Source: a virus
Taxonomy: Duplodnaviria; Caudoviricetes
IMG/VR virus record: IMGVR_UViG_3300017766_002123
Span: 1-41,510 of that record
Reading direction: 5' to 3' (one strand)
DNA length: 41,510 nt
Every line of letters begins with the position of its first letter. The stretch's first letter is position 1. This document shows, piece by piece, positions 2,181 through 40,408 of this stretch. Under the pieces are notes generated by a model, which was given only the letters and a program-made list of their open reading frames with translations, was not told where the DNA came from and made no database searches. The position numbers and the translations under genes were made by a program.

Positions 2181-2766
2181 ACGAGTAAAAAGAGGTAAAT
2201 ATGTAAAAAGTGGAACAGTACCACCATTAGAGCCTTTATCTGAAGAAGCACAACAACTATTAATTTCTGATAACGAAAAAAAGAGATTGAGAAAGGAACA
2301 GAGGGAAGAAATGGAAATCTTAGACACCGAAGAAGTAAAACCGCAAGAAATCAAGAAAAAAGTAGGCTCGATTAAAGGTAAAAAGAATAGAAGCACAGTA
2401 GTTAGAGAAATATTAGACACTACTACTTATGGTAGAAATCCTTTAACTGGTACTGATGATCTTATTTCACAAGAATATAGAATTACACTTGCAGTATTGT
2501 CCAAGGCACTAAAAGGAGATGTAAATGCCTATAAAGCACTAATGGATAACGCATACAAACCTCATACACAAGAAGTTGACACTAAAATACAAACTATTGA
2601 TTTAAGTCAATTTAGTTTTGATGAATTAAGAGGTTTCTTAAAAGACCAAGATGATTATTTACCACCAAACTTATTAACAGATGGAATTGGAACAAATGAA
2701 CAGCCTACCTATCCAAGTGAGACAAGCACTGGAACTTCAAGTGAGGGCGACATTAGCGAGAGATGA
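2170..2766 (+). CDS. Terminase small subunit (putative)
   Basis: Directly upstream of terL; GSIKGKKNRSTVVRE and KALKGDVNAYKALMD pattern typical of TerS-like proteins. Confidence 0.7.
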   Translation: MKDRRVKRGKYVKSGTVPPLEPLSEEAQQLLISDNEKKRLRKEQREEMEILDTEEVKPQEIKKKVGSIKGKKNRSTVVREILDTTTYGRNPLTGTDDLISQEYRITLAVLSKALKGDVNAYKALMDNAYKPHTQEVDTKIQTIDLSQFSFDELRGFLKDQDDYLPPNLLTDGIGTNEQPTYPSETSTGTSSEGDISER

Positions 2767-4066
2767 TTTTTGGGAGTTTTGTAAAATGTATGATAAGGAT
2801 TTCTTTATAAAAAGACCTTTTCTACAGAAGATTGCTAAAGCCTTTATGTTAGTTGAACGTGGAGAAATTAAATCATTATCGGTATCATTACCACCAAGGG
2901 GTGGAAAATCATACATTACCTCACTATTTTGTGCTTGGGCATTAGGTAGAAATCCTACCGAATCAGTAATGCGTAATACTTGTACTGCTACACTATTCCA
3001 AAAGTTTTCTTATGATGTTAGACAGATAGTAAAATCAGAAAAGTTTGCTATGGTATTTCCCGATGTAGAACTTTCTTCTGATAAAGCCAATCTACAAGGT
3101 TGGAATACCAATAAATCAAGACAGGTAGGTTACTTTGGAGCAGGTGTAGGTGGTACTATTATTGGTTTTGGTGCTACTATGTTGGCTATTACCGATGACT
3201 TGTATCGTGGTATTGAAGATGCACTATCTGATGTAACTAACGACAGAATCCTACAATGGAAAGAAGGTACTCACGATTCACGACTTGAACGTAACTGTAA
3301 AAAGATTGATATAGGTACAAGATGGTCAACAAACGATGTTATAGGCAAGAATGTAACGAATAATGAGTATGACTTGTCAATTATTGTTCCTGCATTAGAC
3401 GAATATGAAAAAAGTTTCTGTGAAGATGTAATGAGTACAGAACAATACTATGCTATACGTAAAAGAATCAATCCTGAAATATGGTCTGCTGAATATATGC
3501 AAGAACCAGTCGATTTAAAGGGTAGATTATTCTCTAACTTACGATTCATAGACAAAAGTGATTTCGATGCAATTAAACACAAGGCAAGTGGTTCTGTGGC
3601 TTATATTGATGTATCAGATGCAGGTAGCGACTTTACAGCAATGGCTGTTGCAACAATTATTGACAAAGTGGTTTATATTTCTGATTACGTATTCAACAAA
3701 GGTAACACCGATGTAACTATTCCAATATGTGCTGAAAGAATAAACCGACTAAACGTAGTGTATTGTAGAGTAGAATCCAACTCAATGGGTGCTGTATTCG
3801 GTAGATTACTCCAAACTAAAGCAAGAAGATGTAAAATACTAAAAGTACATAACACTCAAAATAAGATTACCAGGATCATTATGCAATCATCTACAATTAT
3901 CAACTCATTTGTCTTTGTAAAGCACGATACTAACGAATACCATCAGTTTATGAGTAACCTATTAAGTTTCTCTAAAGAAGGTAAAAACCGCAATGATGAT
4001 TCGCCCGATTGTCTTGCAGGTTTATCAATGTTTTTGAAATCTTTATTCAAAAAGTTGGAATTGTAA
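2681..4066 (+). CDS. terL: Terminase large subunit
   Basis: Walker A SLPPRGGKS, Walker B AITDD, GTRW motif, nuclease YIDVS...DFTA, C-terminal NDDSPD. Confidence 0.95.
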   Translation: MELEQMNSLPIQVRQALELQVRATLARDDFWEFCKMYDKDFFIKRPFLQKIAKAFMLVERGEIKSLSVSLPPRGGKSYITSLFCAWALGRNPTESVMRNTCTATLFQKFSYDVRQIVKSEKFAMVFPDVELSSDKANLQGWNTNKSRQVGYFGAGVGGTIIGFGATMLAITDDLYRGIEDALSDVTNDRILQWKEGTHDSRLERNCKKIDIGTRWSTNDVIGKNVTNNEYDLSIIVPALDEYEKSFCEDVMSTEQYYAIRKRINPEIWSAEYMQEPVDLKGRLFSNLRFIDKSDFDAIKHKASGSVAYIDVSDAGSDFTAMAVATIIDKVVYISDYVFNKGNTDVTIPICAERINRLNVVYCRVESNSMGAVFGRLLQTKARRCKILKVHNTQNKITRIIMQSSTIINSFVFVKHDTNEYHQFMSNLLSFSKEGKNRNDDSPDCLAGLSMFLKSLFKKLEL

Positions 4067-4084
4067 AGATTATTACTAATTTTG
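4055..4084 (+). promoter_or_regulatory. Bacteroidota-type primary sigma promoter (TTG-19-TAATTTTG) for the putative sRNA
   Basis: TTG 4055-4057 and TAATTTTG 4077-4084. No ORF lies between it and the downstream terminator. Confidence 0.65.
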
Positions 4085-4087
4085 AAA

Positions 4088-4157
4088 TGTTTTCCAATGG
4101 CTACTGCCTTTAATTGCTTTCTTTAAAATTTCCCCTCTAACAAAGAGGGGTTTTTTT
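4088..4157 (+). ncRNA. Putative trans-acting antisense sRNA targeting AAAGCAAT start-codon motifs
   Basis: Own promoter and terminator. TAATTGCTTTCTTT (4111-4124) is the perfect reverse complement of 32887-32900, and its core ATTGCTTT complements four more start regions. Confidence 0.6.
4132..4157 (+). terminator. Intrinsic terminator, probably bidirectional, between convergent terL/sRNA and portal
   Basis: CCCCTCT-AACAA-AGAGGGG followed by T7. Confidence 0.85.
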
Positions 4158-5388
4158 ATTTATAAACACCCTTTTTCAATCCCAAGAATACTTTCTTCTC
4201 ATCATCAGATAAAGTAATACCTAATTCTTGTTCAATCTTAATTAATGCAGATGCTCTGTAGTCGAATCCCTGAGATTCTTGTAAGTAATCTTTTTGCAGG
4301 ACAGGCAAATGTTCGTAGTCTGCTACTAATCTTAATCCTTCTTTTTCTAATCCTAATTGTTCACTAATGTTGTTATAGATATGCTCTGCTTCAGGAATAA
4401 TAGTAGTAGTATACGCTAATCTTTCCCCATAATTCACGTTAGAATACGTTGAACCGCTTTCATTAGAGAAAATATAGTAGTTAAGACCAAAAGCATCTAT
4501 AATCGCAAGTTTGTCTGCTTTAAGTTCGTCAAACAACATCAAGTCTTTTGTAGGGAATGACATTGGTGTCCATTTAACATCAGATTCAGAGATTATCAAC
4601 TCATCTTTACTTCTATTGTACCAATCTCTTTGTATTTGTTCACGTTCTTCAGGAGACATAGGTAAAGCACCACCTAAATCAGAGTTTACTGCTGATAAGA
4701 TACCAATAGCACCAATATTTTCTAAAAGCACGTTACGTTTGTTGTATTGAGCCTTAATATTAGATAATGGGTATTTTAAACTTTCTATTTTAGATACTGA
4801 ATTTAAGATATTAACACCATCAGTTGTTTGAATGATAATAACTTCATCATTTGTTAATAACTCTTTGTTGTCTTCATTAAAATTATATACATAATCCTTG
4901 ATTAATCCACCTTTTTCCATCTGTTTCAAGGAACGACCTGATGTATTAATCTGTACCTTGTGAGTAGCAAGTGGAACAAACAAATTAACTATTCCAAAAC
5001 TTCTTTTTGGTGCGTAACACAATGCTGTAGAGTATAAACTATCATTAACTGATATTGAGTAGATTACATCTTGCCAAGATTGCATAGGATTAGGGTTTTT
5101 AATTAAATCAAGTACCCAATGTGATTCTACTTCTGATCCATCAGATTCTTTTACAAGTCTTGGCTTACCATTTGCTAACATTTGAGCCTTTTTATCTACA
5201 ACTGTTCGTAATTCAGGTATTTCGATATATGCTTTGAATGGTTTTGAAGTGTCCATCCATATAGCAGTTTTCTTACCATAGAAGTCGTGTTGATAAGCAC
5301 GAGTGGTATCAAATAGGTCGGAAATATTCCTAATAGGCTTTTTTATTTCAGTTCCAAAGAAAGCATTCCAAAAAGAAAGTGTACTCAT
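4156..5388 (-). CDS. Portal protein (HK97-like), inverted orientation
   Basis: L...IKNPNPMQSW, SKIESL, KW.PMSF...DLML, AFGL...STYSN portal motifs. Start taken at ATG 5388. Confidence 0.9.
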   Translation of the reverse strand: MSTLSFWNAFFGTEIKKPIRNISDLFDTTRAYQHDFYGKKTAIWMDTSKPFKAYIEIPELRTVVDKKAQMLANGKPRLVKESDGSEVESHWVLDLIKNPNPMQSWQDVIYSISVNDSLYSTALCYAPKRSFGIVNLFVPLATHKVQINTSGRSLKQMEKGGLIKDYVYNFNEDNKELLTNDEVIIIQTTDGVNILNSVSKIESLKYPLSNIKAQYNKRNVLLENIGAIGILSAVNSDLGGALPMSPEEREQIQRDWYNRSKDELIISESDVKWTPMSFPTKDLMLFDELKADKLAIIDAFGLNYYIFSNESGSTYSNVNYGERLAYTTTIIPEAEHIYNNISEQLGLEKEGLRLVADYEHLPVLQKDYLQESQGFDYRASALIKIEQELGITLSDDEKKVFLGLKKGVYK

Positions 5389-5401
5389 AATAAATTTTTT
5401 A

Positions 5402-5430
5402 TATTTTTGCAATATTAAAGAACAAATTTA
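5402..5430. promoter_or_regulatory. Crossed divergent promoter pair for prohead protease (+) and portal (-)
   Basis: TATTTTTG 5402-5409 on +; TAAATTTG 5430-5423 on -. Confidence 0.6.
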
Positions 5431-5436
5431 ATAAAT

Positions 5437-6198
5437 ATGAATAACAAAGTAAATTCGGCTTACAAAATAAAATCTCATTCGTTACAAGTTAAAGATGTAG
5501 ATGCTTCTTCTCGTAAGGTTGCGATGTATCTTGCTCACTTCAATAACATAGATTCAGACAATGATATGATTGTTAAAGGTGCGTTTGCAAAGTCTTTACA
5601 AGAAAGAGGTGTAGATTCAAATTCTAACAGAAAAATTGCATTTTTAAGACATCACGACTGGAAGTGGCAAATTGGAAAGTTTATCGAATTAAAAGAAGAT
5701 GAAAACGGTCTTTATGCTGTTGGAGAGTTGGGAACTTCTACATTAGGCAATGATGCTTTGTGTGATTACCAAGATGGTATCATTAAAGAGCATTCTATAG
5801 GATTTAGATACATTAAAGATAAATTAAAGTGGATTGATGATGAATCAATGCTAAGCAAAGGGTATTACCAAGTAAACGAGGTTGCACTTTGGGAAGGATC
5901 AGCAGTTACTTTTGGTGCTAATGAAATGACACCAGTATTAGAGGTAGGTAAATCATTAGAAAGTAAAGGAGAGATTATTACTTCTATTACTAACCAAATG
6001 GAAACTATCGTTAAAGCATTAGGTAATGGTAATCGTACAGATGAATCTTTATATTCACTTGAAATGCGACATAAATTCTTATCATCTCAATTAGCAGAGA
6101 TTGCAGGAATGACTGTAGAGCAAACTGATGTAAAACAAAACCTAATAACTGAATTGAAATCCTTTGATTGGAGTACAGTATTTAATAACGTAAAATAA
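5437..6198 (+). CDS. HK97-family prohead protease
   Basis: FNNIDSDND.I.KGAF, H-D..IG, SIGF, LWEGS.VTFGAN motifs. Confidence 0.92.
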   Translation: MNNKVNSAYKIKSHSLQVKDVDASSRKVAMYLAHFNNIDSDNDMIVKGAFAKSLQERGVDSNSNRKIAFLRHHDWKWQIGKFIELKEDENGLYAVGELGTSTLGNDALCDYQDGIIKEHSIGFRYIKDKLKWIDDESMLSKGYYQVNEVALWEGSAVTFGANEMTPVLEVGKSLESKGEIITSITNQMETIVKALGNGNRTDESLYSLEMRHKFLSSQLAEIAGMTVEQTDVKQNLITELKSFDWSTVFNNVK

Positions 6199-6931: not shown

Positions 6932-7605
6932 GAGATATTAGTGTTTTATTTGAAGAATTGGTTTCGCAGATTGATAGTACAATTACCATTAAAAGCAAAG
7001 TTGGTAATGTGTTTAACACTTGTGATACTAAATGGTTAAGAGTAGGTAAAAAAGTTTGGGGATTAACTTCTACAGATGTACTGAAACAAACTACTGTTAA
7101 AACACTAACAAAAGATACTTCATTTGAACTTAATGACAACACAATAGTAAAGGGGATATATATATCATCTCCTTTCGCTATTGTAGGTACAAAGATTGCT
7201 ACTAACAACGAGTTTATTTTAAAGGGTAGAAATCTATTGGATAAGACACCTCTTATTTGGTTGTTAGAATCACACAACGAAAAAGTATATAATACAGAAG
7301 CAAGTTTGGAAAGAGATATAAAAATGAGGATCATCTTTCTTGACGAAACAAATGTAGCACAATACAAGACTACAGACCATAGACTACAAGTAGTAGAGCC
7401 AATGATTGCTTTACAAGAAGAATTTATAAAAGTTCTTAACAAAAAGCCAATTTACAAAACGTTAAAAGATTTCAATAGAAATGTATTTAGTAGATTTGGT
7501 GTCGAATCAGATAAAGGTGTAATACAGAATATCCTTGACGCTGATTTAAGTGGAATAGTAATTGAGTTTACGACTTCCAAGTACAAAGAACCGTGTAAAT
7601 GTTAG
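6928..7605 (+). CDS. Putative neck/tail-completion protein
   Basis: 225 aa in the structural cluster; function inferred. Confidence 0.45.
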   Translation: MRDISVLFEELVSQIDSTITIKSKVGNVFNTCDTKWLRVGKKVWGLTSTDVLKQTTVKTLTKDTSFELNDNTIVKGIYISSPFAIVGTKIATNNEFILKGRNLLDKTPLIWLLESHNEKVYNTEASLERDIKMRIIFLDETNVAQYKTTDHRLQVVEPMIALQEEFIKVLNKKPIYKTLKDFNRNVFSRFGVESDKGVIQNILDADLSGIVIEFTTSKYKEPCKC

Positions 7606-7696
7606 TTCAGTCATAGAGCCGATTTAATAATCACTTAGTAACTAAACCCAACATAGGTCGAAAGATTTATCGTTTAATTATTAAATTTTATTAAAA

Positions 7697-10839: not shown

Positions 10840-13800
10840 TATAATTAAAAGTGAAGATTTATTTGAAAAGGAATTATTCAAAGTATTAATTGACGAGATT
10901 AATAAAGCAGAAACCGAAGTTAAAAAACTTGAAGGTAATTTAGGTCAATTAGGTTCTAAACTTAAAGAATCATTACAAGGTGCTAAAATTGATAATTTAG
11001 AAAACATCAATAAAATACTTAATGGTTCAAAAGAAGCAAATAAACATCTTGAACAGCAGATTCAACTTGAAAAACAAATTGCAGGATTACAAGAGAAAAA
11101 GAAAAAATTACAAGATGAAATAAATAACAGGTCTGAAAAAAATAGAGTTGCTGAAATAAACTTACAAAAGGCAAGGGAAAAGGCTATAGACAATTTTAAT
11201 AAAAAAGAAAAAGAAGCACAAGATAATATAAATAAAACAACAGAATTGCAAAAACAACAAGCAATTCAAAAGCAAAAACAATTAGAACAAGAAAGATTAG
11301 ACGAGATAAGACTACAAAAAGAAAGAGAAAAAGCATTTGACAATTATGAAAAGAATCTAAAAAAACAAGAAGAACAAAAAAACAAAGATTATCAGCAAGA
11401 AGTAGATAGAATACAAAAAGAGAAAGAATTAAATGAAAAAAAGTCAGAATCAGAAAGGCTTGATGATATTAGGCTACAAAAGGCAAGGGAAAAGGCATTT
11501 GATGATTACGAGAAAAAATTAAAAAGAGAAGAAGAACTAATACAAAAAGCAAATGAAAAACAAATAAATGAAACAAATAAAATTGCAGAAAAAGAAAGAA
11601 TAAGAGCCGAAAAAGAAGCAAATGCTATTGCAAGAGAAAATGCCAAGAAAGAAAAAGAAGCAGGAAAATTAGCCGAAAAAGAAGCGAAAGAAGCAGAAAA
11701 ATTAGCGAACGCATATAATCGTTTAGAGAAAAACACTCGTGAACTTAAAAACGAAAGTAAGCGATTAGGTGCTGAAATGCTTGAATTAGAAAAAGCAGGG
11801 AAGAAAAGCACTAAAGCATATTACGATTTAGAGAAACAATACGATAAAGTAACTAAATCAGCACAAGAGGGGGATAAAGCACTAAAGAAATTAGATAGTC
11901 AAGTAGGAGATAACTTCAGGAATGTAGGTAACTATGGCAAAGCATTAGGTGGTCTTACCCAGTTGTTACAACGTATGGGTATGGCATTTGGTATCTATGA
12001 AGTTGCTCAATTTGGTAAAGGATTATTAACTACACAGGTTCAACTTGACAGATTAAGATTATCTCTACAAAACGTAAGTGGTTCAACAAAAGAATACCAA
12101 GCAAACTTTGCGTTTTTACGTAATATATCATTGAGTTACGGACAAGATTTGCTTTCACTTGTAGATACCTACAAAAACTTTATGGCATCTACCGAGGAGA
12201 GTAATTTGCTATTAGGGGAAAGAAGAAGAATATACGAAAGTATAATCAAGGCAGGTTCGGCACTTGCATTATCCAATGAAGATGTAGAAGGTACTTTAAG
12301 AGCAGTACAACAGATGTTCTCAAAAGGCACTATACAAGCAGAGGAATTAAGACAACAGTTAGGGGATAGATTGCCGGGTGCTTTCTCATTAATGGCAAAG
12401 GCTGTTGGAGTATCTGAAGCAAGATTAGGAGAAATGATGAAAAACGGTCAGATAATGACTGATGAAGTAATGCCTAAATTTGCAATCTTATTAGAAGAAC
12501 AATTTGGTAAAAAAGCAAGTAAAAACCTTGAAACTTTAAATGGTGCTTGGAACGCATTTAAGACTAATCTAACTTTATATATAGACCAAGCACAAGCAAG
12601 TGTTAATATTAATAAGTCTTTGGCTTGGGCAATTAAAAGAGTTGGAGAAAACATAGGTGGAATACTAAAAGCAACAAGACAGGTTGTAACTGCATTTTTA
12701 TTGTATAAAGCAACATTAGTAGCAGTTGATGTTAGACAAAGAGTATTAAGTAGTGGATTTTACAATTTAATAAAATCATTTTTTAAAGGAGAATTATCAA
12801 TAAAATCTTTAATATCATCTTTTAGAGCGTTAAAAGTATCAACAGAAGGATTCTCAAGTTCTCTTAAAAGCATAAGTTTATTTGCTGTTATTCAGGGAAT
12901 TACAACATTAACAGAAAAATTTATTGATTTAGCAAATGGTACTGATTTAGCAAGAGAAAGGTATTTGTTATACCAAGGTGCTGTTTCAAAAGGTAATAAA
13001 AAAGCGAATGATTTTTTAAGAGGTATAAATGATGAGTTTTTTACATATCAAAAAAAGCAACAAGAGGATAGAAAAAAAGGTTTAATTTCTGAAGAACAAT
13101 TAAAAAAGAATATTGCTAATGCAGAATTAATCAGAGAAGAAAAAATACAAAAAAGAATTGGAGAACTACAGCGTTCAATACAGGTAGCAAAAACCAAGCG
13201 AGTAGAAATTAGAGCAGATTATAAAGGAATGTCGCCTGATGAGATTGTTAAAAAACAATTAGAAGCAGGAGATGACTATGAGAAACTATGGGCAATATCT
13301 GAACATTCTATAGACTTTAACAAAAGAGTTGCTAAAACTTATGATATGTTAGGTGCTAATGCTACTGATTTTTCAGAGCAATTAATGGCATTAAACGAAG
13401 AATTAAATAAATATAATGTTTTAGGTCAAGGAACTGCTAAGGTAAATAATAAAACTTCTTACTCATACAAACCAATAATTAAAGATTTAAAAACAGTAGA
13501 GATTGAATATAAAACTATAAATGACTATTTACAAGACCACATCAACTTACTTAATGAAATAGAACTTTATAATAGTGAAAGAGGTGCTACAGTAAGAGCA
13601 ACACAATTTGAAGATGAGTTTAAAAGACAAATGGAAGAAGTTCAAATTAATGGGGAGTATAATTTAGAAATATTAGCAAAACTTAAAAAAGAAGAACGAG
13701 ATTTCTTAATTGATGCCGAAAAGAAACAGACTGAAATTGTAATAAAACAACGTAAAGATGAATTTGAAAAAAGAACGAAATCACTTGAAGAGTCTTTAGA

Positions 13801-16674: not shown

Positions 16675-16866
16675 ATGAATGGATTTGACGAAATAATTAG
16701 TGGTTTAATTGCTGAAACGGAAAAGACAATAATGAATTTGTCAAATGTAGAAGGTTCAGAAAATATACAAGCCTTACTAAAAGAAGTACAAGATGCTATT
16801 AAAAGCAACGATACAGATAAACTCAATCAAATAATGGAACAGTATGGCGATAAGATTAGTAGATAG
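16675..16866 (+). CDS. Small hypothetical protein
   Basis: 63 aa; TAATTTTG ends 4 nt before the ATG. Confidence 0.6.
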   Translation: MNGFDEIISGLIAETEKTIMNLSNVEGSENIQALLKEVQDAIKSNDTDKLNQIMEQYGDKISR

Positions 16867-19180
16867 TACATTTTACGATGTATATGGTAATACATCAAAG
16901 GAATTTAAAGCCAATGCTGGAGATACAATAACAGCAAAGCATATATTTGAAGTTGAAATAAGTTGCGTATCAAGTGTACAAAATCAATTGACTATTGACA
17001 AACTTGAAAATAAACTATCAAGAGGTCAAGGTTCATTCTTGAATGATGGATTTAGAAAAGGGCAGTTTTGTTCGTTAATATTGGTTAATAACATAAACAA
17101 TATAACTGAACTTTATAGACCAATGGAAATATTGGCTGTTTCAGATTTACAGATGACTATAACAGAGTTACCAAATAGAAACAACTGGACTACTGGAACT
17201 GATTATACTGCTGTTTTAATATGTGATGATGCTGTTTATGATACTGTAAATACTGCATTTAATTTTGTAGATAATGATTTACCTAAAGATGCATCTTTAT
17301 CACTTGAATCTTTAATTGACCAAGAAACAAGTAAATTTATCGCTGATGGTATTAGTGCTTTAGCTATAAATGGAAGTATAACAATGACACAGATAGGAAA
17401 GAAATCAGGTCAATTTACTGCGAGTGCTACAATACAAAGAATAGCAAATTTAGTTAATCCATATACAGCTTTTACTTCAATAAGAAGAAGATATGAGGTA
17501 AGTATCACAATGATATTTCCTGCTATGTTTGATTCTAATAGTTTTATTGGAGATAGATGTTTAAAGTATTTTTCAAGAACTTCATTTAGGATCAATTCAA
17601 ACGACAATCTTGCACCTACAATATTTGACTATAAAGAGAAAGCAACAACAGGTTTATGGGATGAAGCATACAATACAGATAGACCAAACATTGTAAATCG
17701 GAATTATGTATCTGATTTATATTATAATGCATTAAATACATTTACATTAAATATTTATACACCAACATCATTAAATATCACAAATATTGAGATAGGTGCT
17801 ATGTATTTAACTGTAGATGATGATTTAAATAAGAACAAACAATTACCACAAGATTTATTGTTACCTTTCGTAAAGACAGGATTAATAAACACTTCAAACA
17901 TAGGAGATACATTTTATCCTGATTACGATAATCAATTTGAGTTAAAAATAGATAATTTAACTGTTATAGATTCAGGTGGAACAAGAGTGCATCAGTTATT
18001 GTTAAAGTTAGACCCATATTATGATTCTACTATTGGATTTGGTAGATTTATTGAAAACAGAGGGGAATTAGATAGAACATTTGTATTGTGGGTAAAAGCA
18101 GGAAATACTAATGCTGTTTTTTATAATGGTCAATTAAAATACAAAGAAATAGTAGGAGTTGAAATTGAGCCTATAAATCAAACAATAATAAATCACGATA
18201 ATAATAGAGATTATAAAGATTTAACCATAAACAATAATTTATCTGATAGCGATTTTAATTTAGAGGACGATATTGCATACATTACTGAATTTGCATTAAA
18301 TACTTTTGTATCTAACGAATCTGTAACAGCAAAAGTCGTAGTCGCAGATACTTTAGGAACTGCTGAATTTGTATTAGATAAAGTTTATTTTGATATAAGA
18401 AATTCAGTATTACAATATTTTGTTAATCAAACAACATCTGTATCTAATAATTTACCTAATTCATCTAATAAAAAAGAAGCGTTTTTATATAAAGTTTCTG
18501 CATTATATGAAGGTTTTTATAAGTTTAGGCTATATTACCCTATTCTTATAGATTGGAGATACTGGGAAGATATATTAAGCACCGACCCTTATTTTCAATC
18601 ACAAGATAAAGACAACAAGAATTGGTTTAATTATATAAGTAATGCTTGGAAAGTATTTATCAAGATAGAAATTCAAAGAAATGGAATAACTGATTATTAT
18701 TATAAAGAATTACCATTTAAAACTTATGATGATTGGTTAGGCACTTCAACTATTGAGCTATTTGATGAAACTGAAACTACTCAATATACAAGTTTACAAG
18801 AAAACAAAAAGATGCTAATTAAAGCAACTCACGTTTTTCCTACACCTTACGCAGGTTATCCTTGGGGTATGATTACAATAGAGCCTAAAGAAAACTCTCC
18901 AAGATATATAATGTCAACTGAAATAGACAAAACACAAGTTGATAATCCATTAATTGGTGTGTCAAATGAAAAAAGATGTGATATTCAATTTCCTGACCCA
19001 GTAACAATTGTATTGAGAAGTTATGTTAATACAAACCTATTAAATGGAAATGATTTTTGTATAACTTCGAAAATATCTGAAGAAGGGGAATTAAACAATA
19101 TGCCTATAGAAGTTAAAATTACTGAAGCAGGAGAAGATAAATTAATTGAAACAGGAACAGAAACAAAAATAACTGATTAA
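16844..19180 (+). CDS. Large tail structural protein
   Basis: 778 aa, beta-rich composition, tail module. Confidence 0.6.
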   Translation: MAIRLVDSTFYDVYGNTSKEFKANAGDTITAKHIFEVEISCVSSVQNQLTIDKLENKLSRGQGSFLNDGFRKGQFCSLILVNNINNITELYRPMEILAVSDLQMTITELPNRNNWTTGTDYTAVLICDDAVYDTVNTAFNFVDNDLPKDASLSLESLIDQETSKFIADGISALAINGSITMTQIGKKSGQFTASATIQRIANLVNPYTAFTSIRRRYEVSITMIFPAMFDSNSFIGDRCLKYFSRTSFRINSNDNLAPTIFDYKEKATTGLWDEAYNTDRPNIVNRNYVSDLYYNALNTFTLNIYTPTSLNITNIEIGAMYLTVDDDLNKNKQLPQDLLLPFVKTGLINTSNIGDTFYPDYDNQFELKIDNLTVIDSGGTRVHQLLLKLDPYYDSTIGFGRFIENRGELDRTFVLWVKAGNTNAVFYNGQLKYKEIVGVEIEPINQTIINHDNNRDYKDLTINNNLSDSDFNLEDDIAYITEFALNTFVSNESVTAKVVVADTLGTAEFVLDKVYFDIRNSVLQYFVNQTTSVSNNLPNSSNKKEAFLYKVSALYEGFYKFRLYYPILIDWRYWEDILSTDPYFQSQDKDNKNWFNYISNAWKVFIKIEIQRNGITDYYYKELPFKTYDDWLGTSTIELFDETETTQYTSLQENKKMLIKATHVFPTPYAGYPWGMITIEPKENSPRYIMSTEIDKTQVDNPLIGVSNEKRCDIQFPDPVTIVLRSYVNTNLLNGNDFCITSKISEEGELNNMPIEVKITEAGEDKLIETGTETKITD

Positions 19181-25043: not shown

Positions 25044-25503
25044 TAGAATAGAATCAGCACACCCAGTTATTCGTGAGGAATTGCGTGATTTCTATATTGA
25101 GTGCAACAATAAACTACCTAAAGGTGTTAGATTGAGGTTTGCTTACGTTTATAGAAGTCCTGCTGAACAAAATGCTTTATATCTAAAGAAACCAAAAGTA
25201 ACTAACGCAAAAGCATTTCAATCAATCCATAATTATGGTTTGGCATTTGATATCGTTATATTGCGAGATAAAGACAATAACGGAACTTTTGAATCAATTG
25301 ATTGGGATATTAATTCGGAATACTTTAAAACTGTTGTAGCGTACTTTAAATCGAAAGGATATGAATGGGGTGGAGATTGGAAAAACTTTAAAGATTATCC
25401 TCATTTTCAAAAAGCATTTAATTTAACGTGGCAACAACTTAAAAACAGATTAGACATAGGCTATAAAATAGTTGATAAAGGAATTACTTATCCTAAAATA
25501 TAA
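25024..25503 (+). CDS. Endolysin, peptidase M15 (L-Ala-D-Glu peptidase-like)
   Basis: RS..EQ, SIHNYGLAFD, EWGGDW, DYPHFQ motifs. Confidence 0.92.
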   Translation: MDKLTIDRIESAHPVIREELRDFYIECNNKLPKGVRLRFAYVYRSPAEQNALYLKKPKVTNAKAFQSIHNYGLAFDIVILRDKDNNGTFESIDWDINSEYFKTVVAYFKSKGYEWGGDWKNFKDYPHFQKAFNLTWQQLKNRLDIGYKIVDKGITYPKI

Positions 25504-25509
25504 CTGATA

Positions 25510-25540
25510 AAGACGCATTTAGAAATATTTGCGTTTTTTT
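25510..25540 (+). terminator. Intrinsic terminator ending the late operon
   Basis: AAGACGCA...TGCGTTTT followed by a T run. Confidence 0.75.
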
Positions 25541-25551
25541 GTGCAAAATTA

Positions 25552-32845: not shown

Positions 32846-32875
32846 TTTGTTCTTAAATATAATTGTGTATATTTG
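32846..32875 (+). promoter_or_regulatory. Promoter TTTG-18-TATATTTG
   Basis: Shares ATTGTGTATATTTGCAT with the promoter at 34162. Confidence 0.75.
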
Positions 32876-32899
32876 CATTATATTTAAAAGAAAGCAATT

Positions 32900-33178
32900 A
32901 TGGATTATTCAAAAGCAATTATCGGAGTATTGTCAGGAGTAACAAGTTCCGAACATTCAAATCAAGAATCAGAAGAAGTATCTAAAGTAGTTGAAGATAT
33001 TTTCAATCAGTTAGAGCTAAAGTGTAAAGTATCTCAAAAAGACGATATTTTAATAAAATACCAAGAGGTATTAGAGTTACGTTCATTAATACGAAATCTA
33101 ACAAGTAATTTGTATTTATCAAAATTAATGAGTAACCACCACAGAGAGCAAGTAATTAAATCCTTAAATCAAATATAA
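32900..33178 (+). CDS. Hypothetical protein (best-matched sRNA target)
   Basis: First gene after the promoter. Confidence 0.65.
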   Translation: MDYSKAIIGVLSGVTSSEHSNQESEEVSKVVEDIFNQLELKCKVSQKDDILIKYQEVLELRSLIRNLTSNLYLSKLMSNHHREQVIKSLNQI

Positions 33179-33376: not shown

Positions 33377-33925
33377 ATGGAAAATTTAGCAATTAACGAA
33401 GTAGCTTATCTATTAAGCAAGATTCAAAACGAGATTAAAGTACAAAAGAATAACTGGAATGCTTTTGGAAAGTACAAGTATCGTTCAGTAGAAGACATTC
33501 AGGTAGCATTAAAACCTATATTGTTAAAGCACGAAAGTTCAGTGATCCTAACAGATGAATCATTTGAGTTGTGTGGAATACCAGTAGTAAGAGCAAAAGC
33601 AACATTTATTTGTCCTTATGGAGAATTGTCAGTAACAGCAGATGCAGGAGTAGATATTCACAAGAAAGGTATGGATTACGCACAGACATTCGGAGCGAGT
33701 TCATCATACGCACGAAAGTATGCACTTGGTGGGTTACTGTTATTAGATGATAGTGCAGATGCGGATGCTACAGAAAAGCACGATAGAACAGAGATAAAGC
33801 CATTAACTGATGCACAAATTAAGTCTGCAATTGAAAAAGGTACTCAATCAAAGGTATTAGAGGGTAACGGAACAAAATGGTCATTAACAGAAGAACAAAT
33901 AAACTTACTTAATGGAAAAGGGTAG
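33377..33925 (+). CDS. erf: Erf-family ssDNA annealing protein
   Basis: KN..N.FGKYKYRS.EDI and AQ..GASSSYARKYALGGL...DD..DAD. Confidence 0.9.
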   Translation: MENLAINEVAYLLSKIQNEIKVQKNNWNAFGKYKYRSVEDIQVALKPILLKHESSVILTDESFELCGIPVVRAKATFICPYGELSVTADAGVDIHKKGMDYAQTFGASSSYARKYALGGLLLLDDSADADATEKHDRTEIKPLTDAQIKSAIEKGTQSKVLEGNGTKWSLTEEQINLLNGKG

Positions 33926-34151: not shown

Positions 34152-34175
34152 ATTAAATAATATTGTGTATATTTG
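34142..34175 (+). promoter_or_regulatory. Promoter (TTTG...TATATTTG) for the YqaJ gene
   Basis: TATATTTG 34168-34175; twin of the 32868 box. Confidence 0.7.
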
Positions 34176-34204
34176 CATATAATAAATAATTAAAGAATAA
34201 AGCA

Positions 34205-34825
34205 ATGGTAGAAATCAAGAATTTAGAGCAAAAAAGCCAAGAATGGTTAGAGTACAGATTAGGAAAAATCACAGGTACTCGTTTAAAAGAAGTACTTAAA
34301 ACTGATAACTTACCAGTATTGTATGAAATGATAGCCGAAACTTTATCTAAACAAGTTGAGGAGTTTCCAATGAACAATGCTATGAAGAGAGGAGTTGAGT
34401 TAGAGCCAGTAGCAAGACAGTTATACCAAGATAAAACTGGAGAAATAATAGAAGAAATAGGATTCTGTTTATCTGATGAAAACGATTACCTTGGATTATC
34501 TCCTGATGGATTTACATTAGATAGAACAGGAGCAATTGAGATTAAGTGTCCATCTACAAAAACTCATGTTAAGTATATTTTAGACGACAGAATACCTAAT
34601 GAATATCTCCCTCAAGTTTGTATGTACTTTATTGTGAATACAGAGTTACAATGGTTAGATTTTATTACGTATGATGATAGATGTAAAGAAATACCAATGC
34701 ACATTGTTCATATTACAAGAGAAGAACTTTCTGATAAGATATTTGAGTTTAAAACTAAGATAGACAAGTTCACAGAGAAGTTTGAAAAGTATTATAGTAA
34801 GCTATCAAGTAAAATGTTGTTTTAA
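34205..34825 (+). CDS. YqaJ/lambda-exonuclease family recombination nuclease
   Basis: EQ.S.EW...R.G.ITG, M.RG.ELEP.AR, SPDG, IEIKCP, YLPQV. Confidence 0.92.
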   Translation: MVEIKNLEQKSQEWLEYRLGKITGTRLKEVLKTDNLPVLYEMIAETLSKQVEEFPMNNAMKRGVELEPVARQLYQDKTGEIIEEIGFCLSDENDYLGLSPDGFTLDRTGAIEIKCPSTKTHVKYILDDRIPNEYLPQVCMYFIVNTELQWLDFITYDDRCKEIPMHIVHITREELSDKIFEFKTKIDKFTEKFEKYYSKLSSKMLF

Positions 34826-37423: not shown

Positions 37424-37451
37424 CATAAAAATATCTATAAGAAAAAATGAT

Positions 37452-37483
37452 TCCCTGCTAAAACAATAGTAGGGATTTTTTTT
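37452..37483 (+). terminator. Intrinsic terminator ending the middle operon
   Basis: TCCCTGCTA-AAACAA-TAGTAGGGA followed by T8. Confidence 0.85.
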
Positions 37484-37639
37484 GTATAAAAAATTGGAGT
37501 CTTGCCAAGTAATATAATAGAAAAATTTTTCTGTATAAAAAATGGAGTCTTGCTCGACTATTATATATAAAAAAATCTATACCAAAATCTGTAGAAAAAA
37601 TTCTATACCAGGATCTACTCCTGGATCTGCTCCTGGATC
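37483..37639. repeat. Non-coding repeat block: 2x TGTATAAAAAA(T)TGGAGTCTTGC, 2x AAAAA.TCTATACCA, 3x CCWGGATC at 12-bp period
   Basis: 37483-37505 and 37532-37553; CCWGGATC at 37608, 37620 and 37632. Confidence 0.85.
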
Positions 37640-37747
37640 AAGCCGAAACACAGCAGGATGCTATGATTAGGAATTAAACAGGAATTTGATCAAAATTTAA
37701 ACTATTTATAATCATTCTAAATGTTGTAAAAGATTGAAAAAAAACAC

Positions 37748-37785
37748 TGTGCAATGTTGCACATTAATATTTATGTATATCTTTG
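37748..37785 (+). promoter_or_regulatory. Early promoter TTG-18-TATCTTTG with palindrome TGTGCAA-TG-TTGCACA over the -33 box
   Basis: Palindrome 37748-37763; -7 box 37778-37785. Confidence 0.75.
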
Positions 37786-37820
37786 TGATATGAAATTAAA
37801 ACAACGGTTAAAATTTCAAA

Positions 37821-37883
37821 TGTTCTTTGACGTACGAAATTACAAGAATGGTTAAAATTTAGGTTCGACTCCTAAGCGTGTAA
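37821..37883 (+). ncRNA. Leader element: boxA-like TGTTCTTTGAC plus tRNA T-arm-like hairpin
   Basis: TTAGG-TTCGACT-CCTAA at 37859-37875; partial acceptor-like pairing TTACA/TGTAA. Confidence 0.5.
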
Positions 37884-37904
37884 CTAACTAAAAAAAATAA
37901 TAAT

Positions 37905-38267
37905 ATGAAATTAGAAAAAAACAAGGTGTATAACTTTATACCAGCAACAGAAAGATTTAAAGAAAAACAGCCTTTTAAAGTTGTCTTTAGACGAAAAATA
38001 AAAGATCATAGGATTTTTAATAGAATTTATGAATTTGCATATTGTCAGAATAATATGCAAGATCTATCTTTAAGCAATGTATTTTATTTAAATGAAGCAG
38101 AATTGATTCAAATAAGCGACAAAAAACAAGTTAAAGTTTATTCGATATATAAAAACGAGTATAGATTACATTTTTATCCTTGTGAAATCTATGCAAATTA
38201 TATATACAACAAGTATTTGTTTAGTGATATTAAAGTAGAGCTAAAACAAGAAATTATAAACTATTAA
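37905..38267 (+). CDS. Putative early protein, hypothetical
   Basis: First ORF of the A-rich small-gene cluster. Confidence 0.65.
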   Translation: MKLEKNKVYNFIPATERFKEKQPFKVVFRRKIKDHRIFNRIYEFAYCQNNMQDLSLSNVFYLNEAELIQISDKKQVKVYSIYKNEYRLHFYPCEIYANYIYNKYLFSDIKVELKQEIINY

Positions 38268-38277
38268 AAAAAAAGCA

Positions 38278-38547
38278 ATGAAAACAGAAAAACAATTGAT
38301 TAAAAACTTTGCCAGCTTAATTAAGCAGGAGGAAAAAAAAGAAAACAAAGACTTTACAAAGATCTTAAGATTTAAAAGAATAATAGAAATAAGAAAACAA
38401 AAGTTTTTTTGTCAGGAGTATAGAGATTACTATAATGAATATGAAGAAAAAAGATATATAATAGTTGATAAAAATGGCTTTGATTTTATCGGCGAACATT
38501 TCAACCTTGAAGAAGCAAAAAGAGAACTAAGTATTTTAAATAAATAA
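38278..38547 (+). CDS. Putative early protein, hypothetical
   Basis: Starts AAAGCAATGAAAACAGAAAA. Confidence 0.7.
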   Translation: MKTEKQLIKNFASLIKQEEKKENKDFTKILRFKRIIEIRKQKFFCQEYRDYYNEYEEKRYIIVDKNGFDFIGEHFNLEEAKRELSILNK

Positions 38548-38569
38548 TATAAACCTATAAAAAAAAGCA

Positions 38570-39004
38570 ATGAAAACAGAAAACAGAAAAACAATTGATT
38601 CATTAGTTGAAGAAATCAACAACACTTTAGGGTATGAATATATACAAGCACAAGGAAGAAATGGATATATTTATATTGACGAAGTAGCAACAGGCAACAG
38701 CATATTAAACACCGCAACAACAACAAAAGAGGTTATAATAGCTTTAAGAAGTTTCAAGAACGGAATTTATACCGAAAAAAGAAATTTATTAATTGAACCA
38801 TCCGAAAGAATGTTTATGATTGTAACAAGTACTGGAAAGCAATTTTTTTGCTACTTGAAACAATTAAACGCTGTTTGTAAAGATTTAAATCAAGGTTATT
38901 ATACAATCTTTCATTTTTGGAATAATAAACAGCAAAAAGTAACTAAAAAACATTTAAAAGAATTATTTGAAAGCCATAAATTAAAACAAAAATTTTATTA
39001 TTAA
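38570..39004 (+). CDS. Putative early protein, hypothetical
   Basis: Starts AAAGCAATGAAAACAGAAAA. Confidence 0.7.
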   Translation: MKTENRKTIDSLVEEINNTLGYEYIQAQGRNGYIYIDEVATGNSILNTATTTKEVIIALRSFKNGIYTEKRNLLIEPSERMFMIVTSTGKQFFCYLKQLNAVCKDLNQGYYTIFHFWNNKQQKVTKKHLKELFESHKLKQKFYY

Positions 39005-39025
39005 TTAACTAAACAAATAAAAGCA

Positions 39026-39241
39026 ATGAACGAAATAAATATAAATCAATTATCAATTGACTACAATAAAGCAAAAGAGAAATTAAAGGAACTATGCAAA
39101 AACGAAAAAGAGTTTACATATATGCATAACTATTTATTTGAAGAAACAGACAAATACAACACCAAATCACCTAACGAACATATACAAGACTATATTAAAG
39201 AAGTCGAAAAACTAATTAAATGTAGAATAGGAATAATTTAA
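39026..39241 (+). CDS. Putative early protein, hypothetical
   Basis: Starts AAAGCAATG. Confidence 0.7.
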   Translation: MNEININQLSIDYNKAKEKLKELCKNEKEFTYMHNYLFEETDKYNTKSPNEHIQDYIKEVEKLIKCRIGII

Positions 39242-39270
39242 AAGAATAGTATTAATAAATAGATAAAAAG

Positions 39271-39591
39271 ATGAAAAAAATTGACGAAATAGAACTATAC
39301 AGAATAATTATAGTTAAATTTTTACCAGCAACAAACAAAAGAAAAGCAAGGGTAAAACTAACAGAAAAAAAAGATGGAAACAACATCAGTAATACAGTTA
39401 CTAAAATTTTAAACTATGATATGTATGGCGGTCAATACACAGAACAAGCGTATAATTATCTATTACAGCAGGGTTTTAATGTAACAGGACGAGCATATAA
39501 CACTAAAGAATTCTATTTTATTTGCGAACGAAATCTAAACAACACAATTAATAATCATAAAGAAAAACCTTATAAAAACCCGACAATATGA
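39271..39591 (+). CDS. Putative early protein, hypothetical
   Basis: IVKFLPATN.R.ARVKL pattern. Confidence 0.7.
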   Translation: MKKIDEIELYRIIIVKFLPATNKRKARVKLTEKKDGNNISNTVTKILNYDMYGGQYTEQAYNYLLQQGFNVTGRAYNTKEFYFICERNLNNTINNHKEKPYKNPTI

Positions 39592-39743
39592 AGACATATA
39601 TAATTTTAAACGGAAAAAATCTATTTATTAGACAATACGCAACACAAGAAGAAGCAATAACATTTGCTCAAAATTATATGGATCATTCAAAGCCGATATT
39701 CATAAGAGAAATAAACGACATAAACATAAACCTAAATAATTAA
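39588..39743 (+). CDS. Small early protein (51 aa, MKTYIILNGK...), not in ORF track
   Basis: ATGA overlap with the previous gene. Confidence 0.65.
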   Translation: MKTYIILNGKNLFIRQYATQEEAITFAQNYMDHSKPIFIREINDININLNN

Positions 39744-39747
39744 GAAG

Positions 39748-39918
39748 ATGAAAACTAAAAAATATATGTTTATATACTACGATAAACAAAAGAATGAATT
39801 ACACAAAGAAACATACGAATTTGATAATATCAAAGAAGCGCGACAAATAGCAAAAGATATTTATTTCAATAGTATGCTAAATGATTTACACAAGATTAAA
39901 GTAATTAAACTAAACTAA
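39748..39918 (+). CDS. Small early protein (56 aa, MKTKKYMFIYYD...), not in ORF track
   Basis: Fills the gap on the coding strand. Confidence 0.65.
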   Translation: MKTKKYMFIYYDKQKNELHKETYEFDNIKEARQIAKDIYFNSMLNDLHKIKVIKLN

Positions 39919-39925
39919 TAACATT

Positions 39926-40162
39926 ATGAAAACAAATAAATACGTATTTGAACTAAATACAACAGCATACAAAGAAGAAAACATTCTAATACTGACAAAC
40001 ATTAATATGAATGTATTAGAAAAAGAACTAACTAAACTAATTACAAGGTATAGAAAAGAAGAATTTGACGAATATATTAACGAGGATATCATAATCTACA
40101 TAAACAAACTATATCCTGACTACCAATTTGAACAATATTCTATAGAGTATCTAAGTGTATAA
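39926..40162 (+). CDS. Putative early protein, hypothetical
   Basis: 78-aa ORF. Confidence 0.65.
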   Translation: MKTNKYVFELNTTAYKEENILILTNINMNVLEKELTKLITRYRKEEFDEYINEDIIIYINKLYPDYQFEQYSIEYLSV

Positions 40163-40220
40163 AAAATAAATTATAAAGAAATAACCAGTAATTAAGTAGT
40201 ACAATAATAATTTTAAAGAT

Positions 40221-40310
40221 ATGATTAAGTTAATTGAAGAAGTAATAAATTTAGTTTTAGTTGTAACAGTGATTGGAGTAATAATTTCAATGTTAGGAAT
40301 TAAGTTATAA
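40221..40310 (+). CDS. Tiny membrane peptide (29 aa, MIKLIEEVINLVLVVTVIGVIISMLGIKL)
   Basis: Single hydrophobic helix; A/T-rich leader. Confidence 0.45.
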   Translation: MIKLIEEVINLVLVVTVIGVIISMLGIKL

Positions 40311-40408
40311 ATTAGATAGTTAGATAAGTATAAACCTTTAAAAACATAAAAATATGAGATAAAACAAAAAGAAAAACTTGTAAAACAAATCAAATCAAAT
40401 GTAATATC

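Follow-up and report, generated by a model that had tools for sequence, protein, structure and literature searches.

We analysed a stretch of DNA of 41.5 kilobases (kb) and 30.5% GC from a tailed phage with genes almost all on the + strand (IMG/VR record IMGVR_UViG_3300017766_002123; hereafter the window). The subject of the analysis is the 89-base gap between the gene of the terminase large subunit (terL) and the convergent portal gene. Directly after terL come a promoter, a body rich in pyrimidines and, last, a terminator (hereafter the unit), which likely specify a 69-base RNA. Part of the body (the seed) is exactly complementary to the start of gene 32900, the lead gene of an operon that also encodes the single-strand annealing protein Erf. 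In a related phage, the RNA and this target have changed together. Genes are designated by their start positions.

Names from PHROGs among the 65 window proteins included TerL, portal, protease, capsid, tape measure, endolysin, helicase, methyltransferase, NinG, Erf, exonuclease, thymidylate synthase, and single-stranded DNA-binding protein (SSB). No integrase, polymerase or sigma factor was found among these 65 proteins (PHROGs; Pfam on 16 and 22 proteins). Likewise, no tyrosine integrase was found in any of the five near-complete relatives, which leaves plasmid-type lysogeny possible. Operons of the window are preceded by TAnnTTTG boxes, and their leaders are A-rich and have no Shine–Dalgarno sequence. 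Because of these two features, the host is likely a member of Bacteroidota, the housekeeping promoter consensus of which is given in the available parts of PMC7366714 and PMC9723704. The box occurs 63 times in the window (31 on the + strand, 32 on the − strand), and the early, late and RNA promoters share this one host consensus. A search for a cultured relative gave a best TerL identity of 46% among 50,697 phage records, and a search of genome contigs for a host or prophage gave a single 28% match and no close prophage.

The predicted RNA unit after terL

The preliminary description of this DNA proposed a complete non-coding unit in the terL–portal gap, and its coordinates for the unit, the seed and the complementary sites at gene starts (the tags) were all verified. 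The promoter combines TTG at 4055, a spacer of 19 bases, and TAATTTTG at 4077–4084. The gap contains no open reading frame (ORF) of at least 50 amino acids (aa), and a stem at 4132–4150 followed by a T-run is the sole terminator found within 3000–5500. Given the placement of the box at −12 to −5 relative to the transcription start (available part of PMC9723704), the host housekeeping polymerase would likely start the 69-base RNA at G4089 (Table 1). The unit thus has the own promoter, own terminator and lack of an ORF that define a trans-encoded small RNA. Its predicted fold consists of an open body, a weak 3-base-pair hairpin, and the terminator (fold z −2.6 to −3.0). Rfam gave no match to the window at gathering scores and none at E ≤ 1 in seven loci, one of which has the body of the window.

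The conservation of the unit was assessed by eye in 60 of 66 loci collected by TerL, namely those that reach the terL stop codon. L056–L058, L060, L063, and L066 end before it, and L150, which matches the window in length and coordinates, was left out as not independent of it. Promoter, pyrimidine-rich body and terminator lie directly after terL in all 31 loci with a TerL identity of 72–100%, and the unit is absent from all 29 loci with an identity of at most 69%. It was additionally found in five loci (L151, L153, L159, L160, and L188). The TAATTTTG box is retained in every unit-bearing relative, and the terminator stems vary in sequence between lineages yet always form. The bodies fall into approximately seven lineage-specific types with little sequence in common, all of them U/C-rich and mostly unpaired; the L153 body is complementary to an A-rich leader containing ATG.

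Positions 4089–4128 are identical in all seven loci with the body type of the window, which form about four haplotypes. In the same loci, terL shows 16–23 differences over its final 300 bases, and in four of the seven the spacer differs at 4–5 of 14 positions outside the box. This pattern of variation around 4089 supports the predicted RNA start. In the largest lineage, the one with a UUUCUUU seed, a 5′ stem presents the seed as a loop of 16–17 bases, with 47 of 48 cells paired across six haplotypes. Both-side changes were counted at four of eight positions of this stem, in a hand-anchored count that leans toward the anchoring structure, and single folds gave z from −2.7 to −5.4. For 18 sequences of this lineage, RNAalifold did not return a consensus structure; misplacement of the stems by the aligner is the probable cause.

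Table 1. Features of the unit, its predicted targets and the neighbouring genes (window coordinates).
Feature	Position	Strand	Remarks
Terminase large subunit gene terL	2681..4066	+	3′ end contains the −33 element; mRNA would stop at the terminator of the unit
Bacteroidota housekeeping-type promoter	4055..4084	+	TTG (−33) within last terL codons, 19-base spacer, TAATTTTG box
Predicted 69-nucleotide small RNA	4089..4157	+	Start at G4089 from the −12 to −5 rule
5′ arm, a second, weaker seed	4089..4102	+	Pairs just 3′ of AUG in co-folds
3-base-pair hairpin	4099..4108	+	Looped out between arms in predicted three-way junction (folds and co-folds)
Main single-stranded seed	4111..4124	+	Exact complement of 32887–32900; reaches 4129 with one unpaired base
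Intrinsic terminator	4132..4157	+	Common to terL mRNA; portal stop abuts T-run on the other strand
Portal gene	4156..5412	−	Convergent; transcripts reading through would lie antisense to the RNA
Main target	32868..32904	+	Promoter box 32868–32875, predicted 20-nucleotide leader from 32880, AUG
Lead gene (92 aa)	32900..33178	+	Second 10-base seed complement at 32912
65-aa protein, likely ribbon-helix-helix	33178..33375	+	Start overlaps stop of lead gene
Erf single-strand annealing protein	33377..33925	+	Same operon; starts one base after gene 33178
8-base tag at start of yqaJ exonuclease gene (34205–34825)	34199..34206	+	Rank 5/66; first gene after its own promoter box at 34168
Tag and GAAAACA, start of 89-aa swappable-cassette gene	38272..38286	+	Rank 7/66
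Tag and two GAAAACA copies, start of 144-aa cassette gene	38564..38585	+	Rank 4/66
8-base tag, start of 71-aa cassette gene	39020..39027	+	Rank 15/66, weakest of the five

Several observations concern the surroundings of the unit and similar units elsewhere. The portal stop codon (4156–4158) abuts the T-run, and its own strand has no strong terminator there, so that late transcripts running past the portal gene could be antisense to the RNA; in another lineage, a separate portal terminator is inserted. The gap is an insertion hot spot in L001, L003, L009, L012–L014, L023, L025, L027, and L153. Inserts of the first type are genes on the portal strand for proteins of 150–180 aa that, by eye, resemble HNH nucleases, and they have a structured leader in common; those of the second type are ORF-free elements of 400–550 bases common to several lineages. 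Near-identical strains carry an insert just past the terminator (L001:4490–4605, L003:4480–4560), with a second TAnnTTTG promoter, then another copy of the ATTGCTTT seed and a longer T-run. The RNA of this insert co-folds best with the start of 32900, with 38570 and 38278 within the top five, and the L001 version resembles an attenuator in that its 5′ part could base-pair with the loop of its own terminator as well. In L111, L113, L116, and L121, all of the lineage with the UUUCUUU seed, a second promoter-body-terminator unit lies 60–130 bases 3′ of the endolysin gene; it is predicted to pair best with the counterpart of gene 32900 and with the start of the next gene. After endolysin, the window (25503–25545) and the related genomes G001 and G002 carry a terminator alone. 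Other promoter-to-terminator units, in L111 (− strand, near 16840–16940) and L116 (near 7540–7690 and 11075–11180), are likely attenuators, with a 5′ part complementary to the terminator loop and a position ahead of genes. The unit after terL was also considered as the attenuator leader of a mobile gene, and this candidate was rejected: the folds show no pairing between 5′ part and terminator, the next gene lies on the opposite strand, and inserted elements bring their own promoters.

Predicted targets in the recombination operon and early cassette

The 14-base seed at 4111–4124 is, as had been claimed, an exact complement of 32887–32900, and this complement is the only one in the window. Co-folding predicts additional pairing of 4093–4096 with 32901–32904 when the small hairpin loops out; the RNA would then cover an uninterrupted 18 target bases spanning the 32900 AUG and nearly all of the predicted 20-base leader. 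The target region is identical in the sister strain L207. An extended promoter motif, TTGTGTATATTTGCA, heads both target operons of the window (32863–32878 and 34163–34178); it also heads the orthologous operon in G001 and G002 and is a possible regulator site.

Gene 32900 was assigned to no family in PHROGs, Pfam or Atlas, with only 11 close homologs found. Orthologs are present in G001 and G002, and positional homologs with 17–18% identity in G004, G005, and G008. The product of the next gene, 33178, is likely a ribbon-helix-helix DNA-binding protein, on a low-scoring match of its structural model (predicted local distance difference test score 88.9). The best structure comparison was weak (Z 4.4, root-mean-square deviation 3.5, 61 aligned), matches at Z 3.0–3.5 include NikR, Arc, TraM, Mnt, and PutA, and named leads from Atlas scored 0.88–0.89; Foldseek returned nothing for this protein at E ≤ 0.001.

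The core of the seed complement, AAAGCAAT, is found in 10 copies on the + strand of the window: five at start regions (32891, 34199, 38272, 38564, and 39020), one at +12 of gene 32900 (32912), and four elsewhere. Its presence in five of 66 start regions compares with 0.18 expected and was reached in none of 5000 column shuffles, for a tag that was picked post hoc. The preliminary description combined the five tagged genes into one regulon, which was confirmed only in part. Gene 32900 is the one strong target (first of 66 starts), but the other four matches comprise eight bases, and 39026 ranks low (Table 1).

The GAAAACA said to follow the tags of 38278 and 38570 is indeed present, at 38280 and 38572. 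The three-way junction predicted for these two genes would cover 14 target bases rather than the stated 15, as T4088 likely lies outside an RNA that starts at G4089 by the position of the box. Contrary to the proposed pairing with the adjacent GAAAACA, the lowest-energy co-fold at 38570 takes the second copy (38579). Overall, the partners of the 5′ arm in co-folds are 32901–32904, the GAAAAC of 38278 and 38570, and AGCC-AUG-AAAAC starts in sister strains; in the duplex with 34205, the hairpin is opened.

Genes 38278, 38570, and 39026 carry tags, but they belong to an early cassette (37439–40330) that is swapped wholesale in all four strains spanning it (L207, L151, L128, and L124), which are 92–99% identical to the window elsewhere; these three tagged genes are absent from near-identical strains. 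Some replacement cassette genes start with AAAGCC-ATG-AAAAC, as the lead genes often do, and the 5′ arm can pair with this start (−13.8 and −14.0). Gene thyX gains a tag in L207, and a C-to-T change in the yqaJ tag of L151 would keep a G–U pair. The swappable cassette and the shifting tags point to a stable core, 32900, with a loose outer target set. Between the promoter box of the early cassette and its first gene lies a 120-base leader with possible structure (37778–37905). In L111, L113, L116, and L119, one identical leader ending in AAAAGAAAGAAAG-ATG follows erf and precedes four different genes (of 73, 78, and 80 aa, and yqaJ), indicating that the tag stays constant although different genes follow it.

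The common motif might instead be a DNA operator, bound for example by the likely ribbon-helix-helix protein 33178 and present in inverted form behind the 4077 promoter. Such a candidate DNA-binding protein is encoded in the same operon, and two direct copies of the motif lie 21 bases apart (32891 and 32912) just 3′ of a promoter. However, three tags are far from any promoter box and yet in fixed register with ATG, the copy in the unit is always antisense and inside a terminated unpaired body, and the RNA stem is conserved around the seed. Moreover, G001 has a 100% identical 33178 protein, although its matched sequence is not the same. We regard an operator as very improbable.

Covariation between seed and start regions

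We tested each RNA against its own genome, with 1000 dinucleotide shuffles per body; start regions make up approximately 4% of the sequence. The relatives comprised five near-complete and several partial genomes, and four lineages were tested: the window, G001, G002, and one formed by G003, G004, G005, and G008, counted as the fourth. Loci with the L010, L153, and L188 body types have sequence without the early region (G007 has only its edge) and lay outside the target tests; searches for more lineages with early genes returned mainly already known contigs. In G005 (L115–L117), about 2 kb is repeated at the record ends (153–1059 recurs at 38968–39874) and was counted once.

In three lineages, the best perfect helix on the whole coding strand falls in a start region; it spans 14 bases in the window (gene 32900), 12 bases in G001 (across the AUG of 11486), and 13 bases in G002 (yqaJ). 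The best helix fell in a start region for 1.5%, 3.9%, and 2.0% of the shuffled bodies, respectively, and the observed start-region helix was reached by 0.3%, 0.4%, and 0.6% (p = 0.003, 0.004, and 0.006). For the window, the sum of the best five start-region helices was also rarely reached (p = 0.014).

Gene 11486 of G001 is the ortholog of 32900 (31% identity, same promoter and position) and thus offers an independent prediction of cognate pairing. In co-folds, the window RNA scored −18.4 on 32900 and −8.7 on the G001 ortholog, and the G001 RNA scored −20.1 on its own 11486 and −11.6 on 32900. With the cognate RNA, the lead gene ranked first among 66 starts in the window and first among 64 in G001. 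With five non-cognate RNAs, its rank was 6–29 and 7–56, respectively.

Tags varied accordingly between genomes. AAAGCAA was present in five of 66 start regions in the window, one of 64 in G001, two of 64 in G002, and zero or one in the fourth lineage, the seed of which is UUUCUUU. AAAGAAA was present in 7/54, 7/60, 8/62, and 4/44 start regions of the latter lineage. Three distant relatives that lack the unit were represented by partial genomes with 101 start regions, in which the two tags occur 0 times and once. The expectation that seed and tag would covary across terL–portal gaps was supported: the seed follows the start regions of its own genome, and in the window and G001 the lead gene ranks first with the cognate RNA only. 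An exposed seed that is complementary to distant starts and covaries with them is clear in three of the four lineages.

Other genes stand out where the lead gene does not come first. In G002, erf ranks first and yqaJ second. With the terL unit of G004 and G005, ssb ranks first (cognate RNA only), and yqaJ and erf rank second to sixth. In a post hoc look, the endolysin unit ranked the counterpart of 32900 first in G005 and G009 and second in G004.

A number of results weigh against an anti-start-codon RNA. The four lineages are mutually related, and some starts called by our simple tag-blind gene caller are wrong. The suggested enrichment of top matches at start codons was not found, as only one of the 10 best genome-wide helices of the window lies in a start region (p = 0.14). 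Co-folding of the window RNA was not significant in the shuffle test either for the best site (13 of 86 shuffles as good) or for the best five (27 of 86). As co-folding cannot separate the body from its shuffles, the case rests on uninterrupted helices and cognate preference. Two untagged starts of the window, 30379 and 10396 (a gene of the structural block), rank second and third, and the three cassette genes are replaced as described. In the fourth lineage, the best genome-wide helix falls outside start regions in all four genomes, and the best start-region helix gives p = 0.13–0.17 (sum of five, p = 0.008–0.05). The lead-gene ortholog ranks only sixth of 64 in G002, 20th and 28th with the terL unit of G004 and G005, and is outside the top five with the endolysin unit of G003. 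Gene yqaJ ranks 1–7 with several non-cognate RNAs, so that part of its signal is base composition. Nothing in the RNA promoter marks timing; it has the same housekeeping consensus as the promoters of the target genes. Finally, four public RNA-labelled runs gave low-depth contigs, none of them over 4055–4151, with shares of 0.05–0.17 and too little of this phage to show or deny the RNA. An unconstrained duplex scan, which was too permissive, scored start regions on average no better than background (−9.3 vs. −10.6).

The gap could in principle be a passive sequence, merely the 3′ end of terL plus a terminator, with a U-rich body that matches A-rich leaders by composition or as a neutral inverted copy. 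The non-significant co-folding tests, the 63 TAnnTTTG boxes in the window, the single start-region helix among the top 10, and the survival of distant relatives without the unit all fit this explanation. Composition-preserving shuffles, on the other hand, rarely reach the observed helices in three lineages, and orthologous lead genes rank first with the cognate RNA only. Invariance also starts exactly at the predicted +1, a compensatory stem exposes the seed, and a second, separately placed unit matches the same gene in another lineage. We consider a passive origin quite unlikely.

Alternatively, the RNA might be real and directed at the host, either at A-rich mRNA starts or at a pyrimidine-binding protein (Rho, S1, or an RbpB-like RRM protein). 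The U/C-rich, largely unpaired bodies would suit such a role, FopS-type seeds match many host starts and bind RbpB (available part of PMC11697453), and phage RNAs acting on hosts exist (PreS and VpdS; available part of PMC12197685). A host or protein target would, however, favour a conserved seed, and the seed instead follows the leaders of the phage itself. We consider this explanation decidedly improbable.

A proposed delayed brake and its precedents

Judging from sequence, the unit likely specifies a trans-acting anti-start-codon RNA, with 32900 likely heading one well-supported, covarying target operon. As the RNA and the 32900 target changed together in a related phage, the RNA likely damps translation of the operon. 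The preliminary description holds for the conserved RNA unit and the covarying seed but only in part for the regulon. Our preferred reading, to which we give a probability of roughly 0.5, is that the 69-base RNA is a delayed brake on the recombination operon.

Acting in trans, the RNA would bind the AUG of 32900 and the short leader before it and so block translation of the gene; the small hairpin would loop out, and the duplex across the AUG would span 18 bases. Ribosome access would be lost at the A-rich −3 to −15 positions, the substitute of the phylum for a Shine–Dalgarno sequence; translation initiation in this group is driven by adenines at −3, −6, and −11 to −15 (available part of PMC7366714). 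Since the start of gene 33178 lies within the 32900 stop codon and erf begins one base after 33178, the block would carry downstream, and the coupled DNA-binding and Erf genes would likely be turned down via translational coupling. Weaker binding to yqaJ and the lead genes of the early cassette may occur through the AAAGCA tag and the 5′ arm, and terL read-through, ending at the same terminator, could add to the RNA pool.

Because the RNA promoter is of the same kind as those of its targets, timing could come only from accumulation, gene dosage or terL read-through, which favours a delayed brake over the four rival explanations considered here. Most speculatively, the terminator-capped RNA would accumulate as time passes and genome copies increase, and in this way it would be a delayed brake, confining the recombination operon to a pulse, and no sharp switch for late genes.

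The fourth rival is exclusion, in which RNA made by the resident phage shuts down early and recombination genes in a related phage that arrives later, and divergence of seed and tag defines immunity groups. Differences in c4 make phages P1 and P7 heteroimmune. In the phages studied here, seed and targets change jointly and fast between lineages, the RNA promoter would fire at once, and L001 and L003/4/5 have a second ATTGCTTT seed copy behind a new promoter just downstream. STnc6030 of BTP1 is an RNA-based precedent (available part of PMC12197685). Against exclusion, no integrase was found in the five near-complete relatives or among the annotated proteins of the window, and thus there would be no lysogen, where immunity would matter most. 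The cross-lineage pairing of yqaJ also stays strong, a poor fit to sharp immunity groups. Exclusion is, in our view, unlikely.

The suggestion that no such case has been described proved too strong at the level of mechanism, given the precedents of P1 c4, P22 sar, 24B_1, and FopS/GibS. Our literature search found no lytic-phage RNA aimed at its own recombination genes and no Bacteroidota phage RNA covering its own start codons; it reached few subscription papers and did not cover the 38 uncharacterised RNAs tabulated with PMC12197685. By analogy, the RNA is likely built like FopS/GibS and acts like P1 c4, while belonging to neither.

[quoted passage not shown] The unit has the housekeeping promoter, single-stranded 5′ part and terminator hairpin by which the available part of PMC11697453 defines them. 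FopS and GibS, as described there, are chromosomal, with host metabolic targets and a conserved seed. The present RNA, in contrast, is phage-borne and directed at the recombination genes of the phage itself, with a seed redrawn per lineage and no Rfam family match. The c4 RNA of P1/P7 is similar in that a phage RNA pairs at icd, a small lead gene, and thereby silences downstream genes; c4 and its target share one operon (c4-icd-ant), and c4 secures lysogeny (available part of PMC8198154). Unlike c4, the present RNA gene lies in the packaging region and is separated from its target by approximately 12.8 kb (counted round the circle) to 28.8 kb, in a phage for which no annotated ant-like gene, Rfam C4 match or integrase was found.

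Other phage RNAs repress, or are proposed to repress, phage genes (24B_1, sar, OOP, aQ, PAK_P4as15, and STnc6030). Those in the available part of the review differ in being mostly cis-antisense, from temperate phages and with one target each, and none listed there comes from a Bacteroidota phage or is aimed at recombination genes via a start-region tag (PMC12197685). RegA and RegB of T4 are comparable in that one product turns down many mRNAs via a common initiation-region feature: RegB cuts GGAG in early leaders, and RegA competes with ribosomes at about 30 starts (available part of PMC3014915). RegA and RegB are proteins, whereas here the agent would be an RNA, with a tag that covaries with it.

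Gene timing in Bacteroidota phages is little studied. Since the seed is redrawn together with its target in each lineage, the window and G001 form a natural two-by-two swap of RNA and leader. A broader and more tentative proposal, possible but doubtful, concerns the whole family of lytic Bacteroidota phages without a polymerase or sigma factor of their own. These phages would time infection by recurrent antisense RNAs (after terL, after endolysin, and inside inserted cassettes) that arise between a gene stop and a terminator and co-evolve with start-codon tags on recombination genes and the earliest genes. Such an address code would set early shut-off and determine which relatives share a cell. 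If the delayed brake is true, its RNA would provide a compact part for repressing genes in Flavobacterium and Bacteroides genetics. It would also account for the short promoter-terminator units that are dispersed over such genomes, and it would mean that a lytic phage brakes its own recombination genes by a trans-acting RNA in a non-Shine–Dalgarno host.

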